From Candidatus Woesearchaeota archaeon (lineage in GTDB: Archaea > Nanobdellota > Nanobdellia > Pacearchaeales > GW2011-AR1), in the NCBI GenBank assembly GCA_964365195.1, contig CAYIPM010000001.1, forward strand, positions 1 through 34,788: a stretch of DNA of 34,788 bases, written 5' to 3'. The number at the start of each line of letters is the position of its first letter. The stretch's first letter is position 1. Shown one piece after another: positions 17,301 through 20,300 of this stretch. The position numbers and the translations under genes were made by a program. The notes under the pieces are model-generated. The model did not search any database and was not told where the DNA came from. It saw nothing but the letters and a program-made list of their open reading frames with translations.

Positions 17301-20300
17301 AACAAATTTCTCTAGTGTTACATCATTAGTTGATGCAAATAATTGGACAGTGTATTGCAATGATAGTTCAAACAGATTAAACTCTACCATCGTTAGCTTT
17401 GTGAAAGATTTAACATTTCCTCAAATTGATTTTGATTCTCGAACACCTGCGAATGCAACTGTTACTCCCAATACGACGGTGATTGTGAATATTTCAATTG
17501 TTGAATTATATCCTGATGAAATAAAATATAATTGGAACGGAACAAATTTTACTTTGATGAATGATTCGCTTGTTCTGTTTATGAATATGGATAATCGCTC
17601 GTCGCTGGGGGAGAATGATACACTTGTTGCTGATGTGAGCGGGTATTGTTATGATAATGAGACGGAGATTTTGACACTTGAAGAAGTTGATTGTGGAGAT
17701 TATCTTGAAGAAATTGAGAATGGGAATTATTATGTTGATGATGAAAATATAATTATTGGGAAAAGAAATGAAAATTTAATACAAGATAAAAATTATGATG
17801 GAAGCATTGAGAATGAAAAAAAGAAAGTGGGTTCAAACAGAATAGTTAAACCCAACCGATTGATACACGATTATACTTATTGTAATGATAAGGAGTATTT
17901 AAATATTTCTGTTCATTTGAATGAAAACGTCGGGGTGGCAGAATGGTTATTACAACCGCTTGATACACGGTGCCCTTCGGGGTTTGTGGGTTCGATTCCC
18001 ACCCCTGACGGCTTGTTTGAAAATTCTCAAAAATGTTATATCAAATCATGGAACTATTTTGTTGAATTAGATGGCGATGAGAAAGTTATGACGCTTGATT
18101 CTTCGACGGGCGAGAAAGAATGGCAAGTGCCGACGGAAAGGCAGGAATTTGAAAATAATGGGGAGATGTATTCGATAAAAACTATTGATGAAGAGGGGAA
18201 GGAAGGGGAGTTAGTGGTGAGCGAGAAACATAGGGTTTATACTGCATCTGAAAGTTTTTTTAATTCTGTTGATACTTCTTTAGTTGAAATTCCAAAGCCA
18301 ATGTTAAATAATAAAACTTCATATGTCCATAATTTACAGCCTTTGGATACACACAATGCAATAAACTCTTCATCTTTTGAATGGTTTTTTAATAATTGTT
18401 TTGCCTTTGGTAATGAAACTTTATATTCTTCTAAAGGAACAAATGTTATTCTTTTAAAAATGAGTTGTACAAATGTATCAAATCTTTTTTCAGATAGTTT
18501 TGTTTTAGACAGTAATTCTTTCTTATGTCTTTCAAATTCTTCTTTAAGTTTCAAAGGTGCCAATAAATCAAGTTGGGAATTAAATACAATTTCTAAAATA
18601 TCTCCTTGTGAGATAAGTATTCGAAATAAAATGTTTGAATCCAGAACAACGGTAAGGGGCATCTATAATAATCCTCTTTTGACTAAATCATCATGCATTG
18701 ATTTTTTGACTTTTTCTGATAATTCATCAGCATCTTTTTGGGTAAATTGTGATTCTGATATAATCTCTTTAGCGAGTGTTAATTCCAGTTTATTTGAAAA
18801 TTCTTTGAGTGTTTTTGATAATGCTCGTTCAAATTCTTTCTTAAATACTTCGGGTATTTCTACTTTAATAGATATTTCAGCCATAGAAAATTCTATGAAT
18901 ACTGATTATAAAAAACTTTCTATCGAAGACTTCTCATTGCAGCCTGTTAGTGAAATGTATGAAGAGTTTACTAACAGTAAAGAAATTTATTTCTTGGATT
19001 CAGAAAATAATCCTGTTCGCGTTTCATCAATTGAAAAAATTCCATATTCAGGAAAAATGTATGATGTTGATGTAGAGAATGATATTGTTCTAGTAAGGAG
19101 AAATAATGGAGCTTCTAAAATAAATAATCAATTACTTAAAAATAAATCATCTCTTCTTGATATAAATCCTGTCATGATGGTCAAAATCTTCAAAAATAAT
19201 AGTATCACCTTTTACAGAAAAGAGAAGAACAAAACTTCCAATTTGAACTCTTTTAAAGTTACTCAAATCATGCCTAAGATTCTTGAAATGCATGATAGCA
19301 ATAATGTTCATTTCAGCAATTTGAGTTATCTTTTTTTGTACAGCGAAAAACAAAGGAAAGTCTTTCTTTTTGAGTTTTCTCAAGATGTCGTCAATTTTAG
19401 AAGTGTCTATCTTCATAATGAGTCACAGAATTTATTAAATTCATCTACTGTCATTGATTTGCCTGATAATTTTTTAGAAGATTTTAATTTTTCTACATAT
19501 TTTTCTTTTAATTCAAATTCATCAACAGGATACCAATCGATTTTATCACAGAATTCCTGGTCATCTAATGATAAAGTTCCTGATTGCATGAATTTTTCAA
19601 ATATAGACTGTTTCATTAATCTAATTACTGCTTTTGATAATAATTCAAAATCTAATTTTATGGAATTATCTGATTTAAGTAACATTTCTGCCATAAAAAA
19701 TGATAAGAGTAATGGTTATTTAAGTTTTTCTATTGGAGAGTTTAGTAATCTTATAAATAGTGGGGAAGAGGAGGCAAGCAAAAGAAAAGAAACTAACGCA
19801 GACGATAGTCATTTTGAAAAAGCAAGTTCAGAAGCTTTTGCTTCTGAAGAGACAGGAATTTGGAGCGGAAATAGCAATAATGGGACTGGGGTGAATGGAG
19901 TGAAGGTGAATACGACTGGAAGATATGGGGGAGCATTTACGTTTGATGGTAAGGATGATGTGATAAATACAACTTTATTATTTAATTCCACACAAGGAAC
20001 ATGGTCTGCATGGATTTCTGTTCCGAGTTTTACACTTGAAGGTGGATTTGGTAGACGTGTTTTGCATCAATCAGATAATGCAGGAAATCATGAAATCAAT
20101 TTAAATACTAATGATAATTCACGTGTACGATGGAGTGGTTATGGAACAAGTTATGTATGGAATTTTAACTCTAATGAAACGTTATCAACAAATACGTGGT
20201 ATCATATTGTAGGGACATATAACGGTAGCTATGCGGCTTTATATCTTAATGGACAATTATCTAATAGTTCAACACAAACTGGACCTGTTGGTGATGCAAA

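Follow-up and report, generated by a model that had tools for sequence, protein, structure and literature searches.

A predicted toxin-antitoxin cassette on the antisense strand between splicing blocks F and G of a giant-gene intein from a groundwater archaeon

Introduction

Can the last turn of an intein, six residues from its C-terminal splice site, hold a gene module of its own? This question is raised by a DNA stretch of 34,788 nucleotides (the window; contig CAYIPM010000001.1, positions 1 to 34,788) from a Candidatus Woesearchaeota archaeon (GCA_964365195.1). The source is a metagenome-assembled genome (MAG) from groundwater, with a size of 1.04 Mb, 34% GC, 214 contigs and 86.6% completeness. 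Neighbours by protein structure point to the Nanobdellota (DPANN). In the window, a single open reading frame (ORF) of 5155 amino acids (aa; 14320-29787) encodes a LamG-repeat surface protein with many N-glycosylation sequons. It contains three homologous inteins, here elements 1 to 3 (17647-19872, 21769-23232 and 25144-26520). Descriptions of inteins usually give them a single permissive site, the homing-endonuclease slot. In element 1, a toxin-antitoxin (TA) cassette lies elsewhere, in antisense orientation between the conserved blocks F and G. Taken as a whole, we consider it likely that this turn is a second cargo slot, and that the antisense TA module is spliced out together with the filler that it encodes in the sense frame.

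Results

A 251-codon insert at the last hairpin of element 1

All three elements begin with CYDNETEILT, end with WSGN↓S (the arrow marks the splice junction) and split the conserved LamG motif D-x-S-G-x-↓-(G/S)-N-N-G-T. Each has Cys1, a block-B S-E-K-H, a block F reading YDVDV-x-NDIVLVRR, and a terminal W-S-G-N followed by Ser. From block F (DIVLVRR) to block G (GIWSGN↓S), element 1 has 251 residues, against 9 and 8 in elements 2 and 3. This bears out an earlier, sequence-only reading, in which a second TA cassette was seen at another site, one that lies between the strands of blocks F and G. The insert ends six residues before the splice-site cut, at the last hairpin of the fold. Its sense frame has no stop in 245 codons, compared with 14 and 43 stops in the other two sense frames and ~20.6 in shuffles. 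On the minus strand there are two ORFs, 19147-19416 (89 aa) and 19413-19694 (93 aa), overlapping by 4 bases (19413-19416). The canonical endonuclease slot of element 1 is filled as well, by a PIN_2 gene and a 73-aa partner (18237-18884). The features of element 1 are listed below; model confidence is given as predicted local distance difference test (pLDDT) of an AlphaFold2 (AF2) model.

17647-19872, plus strand: element 1, an intein of 742 aa that starts at Cys1 and stops at the terminal Asn, with the +1 Ser at 19873-19875 (from sequence and AF2 model)
18931-19101, plus strand: C-terminal lobe of the Hint domain, as far as the block-F strand (FSLQP...YDVDVENDIVLVRR), conserved in all relatives, pLDDT ~80-88
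19102-19854, plus strand: F-G hairpin insert, 251 sense codons without a stop, rich in Ser, Asn, Phe and Leu, pLDDT <50 over most of model residues 488-734
19855-19872, plus strand: block-G strand GIWSGN with the splice-site Asn at its end, a strand in the model (E738-742) and part of the Hint alignments
19147-19416, minus strand: gene of a RelE/YafQ-type toxin (89 aa), in codon register with the sense frame, with zero TTA, CTA and TCA codons
19413-19694, minus strand: partner gene, 93 aa, presumed antitoxin, overlapping the toxin gene by 4 bases, of no known family
19102-19146, minus strand: 3' flank of the cassette, T-rich on this strand (TTTATTTTTAAG), read from the sequence
19699-19745, minus strand: predicted promoter module of the cassette, with a TATA-like TTAAATAA at 19723-19716, centred ~26 bases upstream of the partner ATG
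19827-19848, no strand assigned: perfect 9-bp palindrome, TTCAGAAGC-loop-GCTTCTGAA, inside the right edge of the insert, with a T-rich tail on the minus strand

The T-rich 3' flank is a possible archaeal terminator. On the minus strand, the palindrome resembles a terminator placed upstream of the cassette promoter; one 9-bp palindrome was found versus 0.3 expected in shuffles, which is non-significant taken alone, and the related locus L043 (see below) has no counterpart. No convincing target-site duplication, terminal direct repeats or terminal inverted repeats were detected around the cassette. A 15-base repeat (18960/19734) was considered as an insertion mark and discarded, because it is accounted for by the promoter module common to all cassettes.

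The cassette pairs a RelE/ParE-fold toxin with a presumed antitoxin

The 89-aa protein matched the YafQ toxin family TIGR00053 (E 2e-10, 41 bits, below the curated cut-off of 87) and the Pfam family ParE_toxin PF05016 (E 0.0097, 16.9 bits, below the curated cut-off of 23). No curated family model was matched above its cut-off. A total of 120 homologues were found, several of them labelled as RelE/StbE/ParE family by NCBI or JGI, and a profile search against the PDB retrieved RelE3 of M. jannaschii (3bpq, E 0.004). Its AlphaFold model had a pLDDT of 91.9. The top 50 Foldseek matches of this model in the PDB were all YoeB, RelE, ParE, YafQ, HigB or Cami1 (RelE-like domain), with probabilities of 0.91-1.00 and TM-scores of at most 0.78. 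By its model, the protein thus has a RelE/ParE fold, in line with the proposal that the extra stretch is antisense to a RelE/ParE toxin and its 93-aa partner. Conserved residues are R48, R56, H80, H81, D82 and Y85, the last four in a C-terminal H-H-D-x-x-Y motif. They would fit an RNase-type member; the protein is probably an mRNA interferase.

The partner gene is located directly upstream of the toxin gene, co-oriented and overlapping, which is the layout of type II TA operons. This order is kept in at least seven loci, among them a paralogue on contig C57 of the same genome, L039, L042, L043, L093 and L095. By position alone, the partner is presumed to be the antitoxin. Longer relatives of it showed a weak match to DUF2683. 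Free-standing relatives of the cassette (L039, 916-1637; L042, 203-927; L093, 416-1134) have an extra upstream gene, encoding a 51-aa RHH_12 protein. As in RelBE, YefM-YoeB and DinJ-YafQ, a small upstream gene overlaps the gene of a ~90-aa RelE/ParE-fold toxin with a C-terminal H-H-D-x-x-Y; unlike in these systems, no antitoxin or DNA-binding domain was recognised in the partner by the Pfam, NCBIfam and PDB searches, and the operon is nested antisense in a coding sequence.

Splicing motifs and predicted fold of element 1

Cys1 (CYDNETEILT, 17647) is the N-terminal nucleophile and was invariant among 11 aligned inteins. At the block-B position T-x-x-H, element 1 reads LVVSEKHRVY (S-E-K-H), and the His was invariant in the alignment of relatives. 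The C-terminal Asn and the following Ser are both present (GIWSGN↓S, 19855-19875), with G741 and N742 invariant. Excision of element 1 would rejoin DVSGY and SNNGTGVNGVKVNTTGRYGG, matching the uninterrupted DWSGRGNNGTAFNGVRVNTTGKYGG elsewhere in the same protein. Because joining DVSGY to SNNGT rebuilds the uninterrupted LamG motif, D-W-S-G-R-G-N-N-G-T in the same protein, WSGN↓S is the true junction. Other C-terminal junctions within the insert were ruled out, since the extein motif is rebuilt by WSGN↓S only. The open frame and the intact terminal WSGN↓S of the sequence-only reading stand, and its own reservation, that the C-terminal splice motif of element 1 might lie elsewhere, does not.

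When the AF2 model of element 1 was aligned with VIA-align, the top 27 matches were all inteins or Hint domains (Z 10.6-17.0, root-mean-square deviation ~2 Å), among them the AceL NrdHF intein (17.0), the hedgehog Hint domain (16.8) and the NpuDnaB intein (16.2). The alignments ran from residue 1 to 742/743, the last strand included. In a model that includes the insert, a check proposed with the sequence-only reading, the Hint fold is thus still predicted to form (Z 17). The modelled Hint domain comprises residues 1-40, 126-205 and 423-487 plus the last strand. Three low-confidence stretches are looped out: the N-lobe insert (41-125, tRNA-Ile-like), the endonuclease slot (206-422) and the F-G insert (488-734). 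A Foldseek search with the whole 743-residue model gave short local matches only, with E no better than 0.04. By motifs and model, element 1 is a class-1-type Hint-fold intein, and it is predicted to splice.

The insert is at the tip of the hairpin linking the last two strands, both of which are intact. We take this hairpin to be also where the S11 site of engineered split inteins lies; the published description gives the position of that site and the 6-aa length of the C-terminal piece. S11 split inteins with a 6-aa C-intein were made from Ssp GyrB, Ssp DnaX, Ter DnaE-3 as well as Ter ThyX, and 4 of 14 trans-spliced, with efficiencies from ~35% to ~100% (PMC3620165). In some inteins, the chain thus need not be covalently continuous near the C-terminal strand. 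As in element 1, the chain of S11 split inteins is interrupted near the C-terminus, and a six-residue piece (here GIWSGN) must dock as the last strand. The S11 inteins are man-made, act in trans and have a broken chain, whereas in element 1 the chain is continuous through a natural linker of ~250 residues and splicing is predicted.

Each of the three inteins has a tRNA-Ile-like gene in frame on the plus strand, as called by ARAGORN (17928-18012, anticodon GAT; 22080-22164, anticodon GAT; 25437-25520, anticodon AAT). These calls lie in an N-lobe insert of ~137 residues after block A, which is absent from all eight aligned relatives.

The insert was gained relative to short-hairpin inteins

A profile search with the C-lobe over 401 genomes of the phylum found relatives in other giant LamG proteins and in NrdD and carbamoyltransferase genes. 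The latter two carry ordinary LAGLIDADG-type inserts and end in W(S/C)GN↓S/T/C. In 14 relatives outside the cassette-bearing lineages, eight from genomes and six from metagenomes (L006, L007, L009, L011, L012, L014, L015, L019, L080, L081, L083, L084, L086 and L087), V-R-R is followed by 3-8 contiguous residues and W-S-G-N. A scaffold tree was based on 142 columns, and gene conversion among elements 1 to 3 could distort its topology. In this tree, elements 1 to 3 form a clade (91/92), which is nested inside the short-hairpin group (86/94). The insert of element 1 is therefore derived. A lost segment in elements 2 and 3, the other case against which the sequence-only reading had cautioned, is unsupported, since the outgroup inteins all have short hairpins and elements 1 to 3 are nested among them. 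A gain at the base of the clade with several later losses is conceivable, as the supports are 86-94% and gene conversion could mislead the tree.

The block-F Arg-Arg codons are CGC CGC in elements 2 and 3 (23158-23166 and 26449-26457), and AGR in element 1 and all relatives. The AGG AGA codons were considered as a link between element 1 and locus L078 and rejected, because AGR is normal in the relatives, with elements 2 and 3 as the exceptions. The hairpins of elements 2 and 3 (ADSDGEYGSA and ADSDGNSVA) are GC-rich and a few residues longer than those of most relatives.

The same site is occupied in a second lineage

A second lineage with an F-G insert was found in ENA (L043/L044) and JGI (L078/L079) data, in an intein of a different, Cys-rich giant protein. 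The same two-gene cassette stands at the same point, after DIVLVRR-GEERC and before KAFWSGN↓S, with toxin and partner antisense and the frame open. The sense frames of the window and of L043/L078 align end to end at 49% identity, and the toxins share ~65% identity in protein and ~70% in DNA. In the scaffold tree, this lineage is outside the group holding elements 1 to 3, so the distribution calls for two or more events, or else for a single event and a transfer.

The boundaries of the site were located by comparing L078 with L085, two loci of one metagenome with an intein at the same host site. Over 184 bases, the DNA of their C-lobes is 97% identical, versus 80-84% for the flanking exteins. 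Homology ends right after the V-R-R codons and restarts at K-A-F-W-S-G-N. Between these breakpoints there is either the TA cassette (L078) or a tRNA-like module of 134 residues (L085). The L085 module resembles the N-lobe insert of the window inteins (35% over 109 residues, E 0.025) and gave a weak tRNA-Sec-like match in Rfam (24 bits, E 0.017); ARAGORN called no tRNA in it. If the slot is reusable, scaffolds that are nearly identical should differ in their cargo, as these two do. Going further, the F-G hairpin of the whole clade might be an exchangeable slot with exact edges (after V-R-R, and 2-3 residues before the Trp of W-S-G-N), with promoter-equipped read-through modules, TA operons and tRNA-like cassettes, swapped between inteins. 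We regard this wider proposal as tentative and rather doubtful.

Cassettes were also seen at other positions. In L043 (3629-5395, minus strand), a PIN cassette lies before block B, between ...EEMFRIELNSH and GGELVVSPKHKVY, and the usual slot after block B is empty; this would be a third cargo position. Tandem cassettes of RHH, partner and RelE genes occupy the canonical slot in L075 (4478-7228, minus strand; G179; three units) and L076 (1-2100, plus strand; G315; two units), every unit closing with one and the same repeated linker (...CVDIFK.FDSENK...). In G179, the frame runs into a stop before any C-lobe, and this intein may be decayed.

One cassette lineage and its codon signature

In the toxin tree, the window copy was placed in a clade (98/93) with the F-G copy of L043, a canonical-slot copy of L095 and the free copies of L039, L042 and L093. 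The L095 copy stands in tandem after a PIN cassette like that of the window. The promoter end of the cassettes (sense ...TTAT(A/T)(A/T)AA..TTTCT...) is the same module in the F-G and the canonical slots, so the cassettes seem to travel as whole units that include a promoter. L095 (1-1198) has a PIN pair and then a RelE pair, as element 1 does, with a toxin that is 74% identical and both pairs ahead of the C-lobe; it differs from element 1 only in the position of the C-lobe. A deleted C-lobe remnant between the two L095 cassettes was looked for, and DNA alignment gave no support for it.

The toxin gene is codon-aligned with the host frame, so that host stops correspond to toxin TTA, CTA and TCA codons. 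None of these occurs among its 7 Leu and 4 Ser codons. Genome-wide, TTA makes up 37% of Leu codons and TCA 25% of Ser codons, and in the partner gene, which is in another register, 11 of 12 Leu codons are TTA. When synonymous codons were resampled at genome frequencies, the host frame was open in 0.56% of the toxin trials (P 0.0056) and in 24% of the partner trials. All sampled intein-borne toxins had zero in-register stops, compared with 1-7 in 24 free homologues outside the six-member toxin clade of the window. The free copies of L039, L042 and L093 and the own-genome paralogue on C57 had 0 or 1. Leu is encoded by TTG (three), CTC (two) and CTT (two) in the window toxin, and by CTC (seven) and CTT (one) in that of L043; neither has TTA or CTA. 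Because the Leu codon sets diverged without TTA or CTA, continuing selection would have acted besides any filter at arrival. The diverged pair of window and L043, together with the 3-base indels described below, argues for maintenance of the open frame.

On contig C57 of the same genome (L038, 1013-3236), there are two free TA cassettes, a partner with a RelE paralogue and a PIN pair. The antisense frame of each is open throughout (300 and 285 aa). The plus-strand open frames chain with a 155-aa membrane-protein ORF via overlapping stop and start codons, in an operon-like manner. These cassettes may be escapees from inteins.

Authenticity and variants of the arrangement

Both junctions are covered by exact Logan contigs (three runs, two studies): X1 covers 18988-19599, X3 18988-19127 and 19498-19860, and X2 19552-19921. 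An independent ENA contig (L096) contains the PIN partner, the C-lobe, the toxin and its partner at 99-100% identity. In X9, a strain variant of ~94% identity from a third study, the left junction is kept, and two deletions of exactly 3 bases (19111 and 19117) were found in the spacer, which is noncoding on the antisense strand. Two "skip" joints in X3 were examined as a cassette-free allele and turned out to be other short-hairpin inteins (e.g. LVERDGLVVWS), with sides of only 25-27 bases.

Discussion

How a cassette in the last hairpin could be tolerated

In the explanation that we favour, the last β-hairpin turn, from DIVLVRR to GIWSGN↓S, would serve as a second slot beside the usual homing-endonuclease slot. 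It would hold a self-contained module of ~750 bases with, on the opposite strand, a TATA-type promoter, the 93-aa presumed antitoxin, the 89-aa toxin and a T-rich end. The module would derive from a cassette lineage dwelling in inteins, in which one antisense register is stop-free and the toxin gene, in every case codon-aligned, avoids the codons TTA, CTA and TCA. Because of this alignment and avoidance, the ribosome could read the giant gene through the cassette, producing ~250 residues of unstructured filler. Since the filler would hang off a surface hairpin, the F and G strands could still pair, as in the S11 split inteins with their six-residue C-piece, and the entire element 1 plus filler would then be spliced out. 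The cassette would be transcribed from its own promoter, and the partner would neutralise the toxin. From the behaviour of type II TA pairs elsewhere, the pair may act as an addiction module and so make the intein harder to lose.

Several observations weigh against this explanation. The penultimate His of block G is missing, with the Gly of S-G-N in its place. This Gly is common to all relatives, including the endonuclease-bearing NrdD and carbamoyltransferase inteins, and inteins without a penultimate His exist; the alignment marks the missing His as a family trait and no defect of element 1. The 93-aa partner gave zero usable matches in Pfam, NCBIfam, a PDB profile search and the ESM Atlas, and the F-G cassettes of the window and L043 lack the RHH_12 gene of the free relatives. 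Free cassettes with an open antisense frame exist (C57 and L039), and an arrival filter could account for some of the openness. The open frame itself is a sign of selection for read-through of the giant gene rather than for splicing. The AF2 model was built on an alignment of 11 sequences, and the confidence of its last strand is only ~50. Finally, 10 of the 14 S11 splits that were engineered had no activity, and a break here is thus not tolerated by inteins in general (PMC3620165).

Some of these points would suit a dead intein, in which the cassette killed C-terminal cleavage and the in-frame insertion is tolerated in one LamG repeat, the frame staying open for the sake of 3,300 downstream residues. 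An open frame is no proof of splicing, the G strand was modelled with low confidence, most S11 splits failed, and the host is a repetitive surface protein rather than an essential enzyme. However, element 1 and L043/L078 both have an intact Cys1, block-B S-x-x-H, acidic block F, terminal Asn and +1 Ser, and the GIWSGN/AFWSGN strand is conserved without any constraint from the antisense strand. The contrast of C-lobes and exteins between L078 and L085 suggests ongoing homing or gene conversion of active elements, and an insertion of 742 residues in D-x-SG-x-G-NNGT would probably disrupt the LamG domain. We therefore judge a dead intein to be unlikely.

An arrival so recent that the open frame is luck, with selection yet to act, was also considered. 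About 2 of 29 sampled free cassettes are already open in the antisense register, the partner alone was open in 24% of the synonymous resampling trials, and an arrival filter without later maintenance is conceivable. Nevertheless, the arrangement was found in the assemblies of three independent studies, the 94% variant X9 among them, and in a lineage whose toxin has diverged by ~35% in protein and 30% in DNA, and the turnover of Leu codons has never led to TTA or CTA. Such an arrival is thus very improbable. The sequence-only reading had offered either a very recent insertion or a tolerated loop; the recurrence in L043/L078, the open frames and the 3-base indels favour the loop, and the very recent insertion is not upheld. 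Hardly any weight is left for an assembly chimera of two repeats in the MAG. Three near-repeated inteins in one gene and a genome in 214 contigs would invite such an error, but the junctions are spanned by the exact contigs X1, X2 and X3, and L096, from another assembly, has the same gene order.

Relation to known inteins and implications

Inteins with nested endonucleases (PI-SceI, PI-PfuI and TliVMA, and in the present dataset the NrdD and carbamoyltransferase inteins L011, L012, L014 and L015) likewise consist of a Hint domain with a looped-out insert that takes no part in splicing. The NrdD and carbamoyltransferase inteins even belong to the same sequence family (CYD.xTE..., ...VPNH..VRRNG...W(S/C)GN↓S). 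Their inserts are located between block B/N4 and block F, whereas that of element 1 is between F and G, encodes nothing useful in the sense frame and carries a TA pair on the opposite strand instead of an endonuclease. The antisense TA operons in the canonical slot of inteins, such as the PIN_2 pair of element 1, are cassettes of the same kind, kept open in frame in the same way and hosted by genes of the same type. The F-G copy differs from them in its place six residues from the C-terminal splice site, and its lineage occurs in both slots and free-standing. No paper describing natural TA cargo of inteins or natural F-G inserts turned up in full-text literature searches. The new part is the slot between blocks F and G, which extends an apparently undescribed class, antisense operons in inteins, from one slot to several.

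The locus is a case of stacked selfish elements, a TA pair in an intein in a giant gene, with both strands coding. A 250-residue F-G insert kept across diverged lineages would show that the last Hint strand docks despite a long tether, which bears on the design of split and conditional inteins. The comparison of L078 and L085 yields exact cargo boundaries that are directly testable. If the slot is indeed exchangeable, inteins would act as multi-slot carriers of selfish genes, and a natural Hint domain would splice with a 250-residue loop six residues from the scissile Asn; loop size or antisense transcription might then tune splicing.

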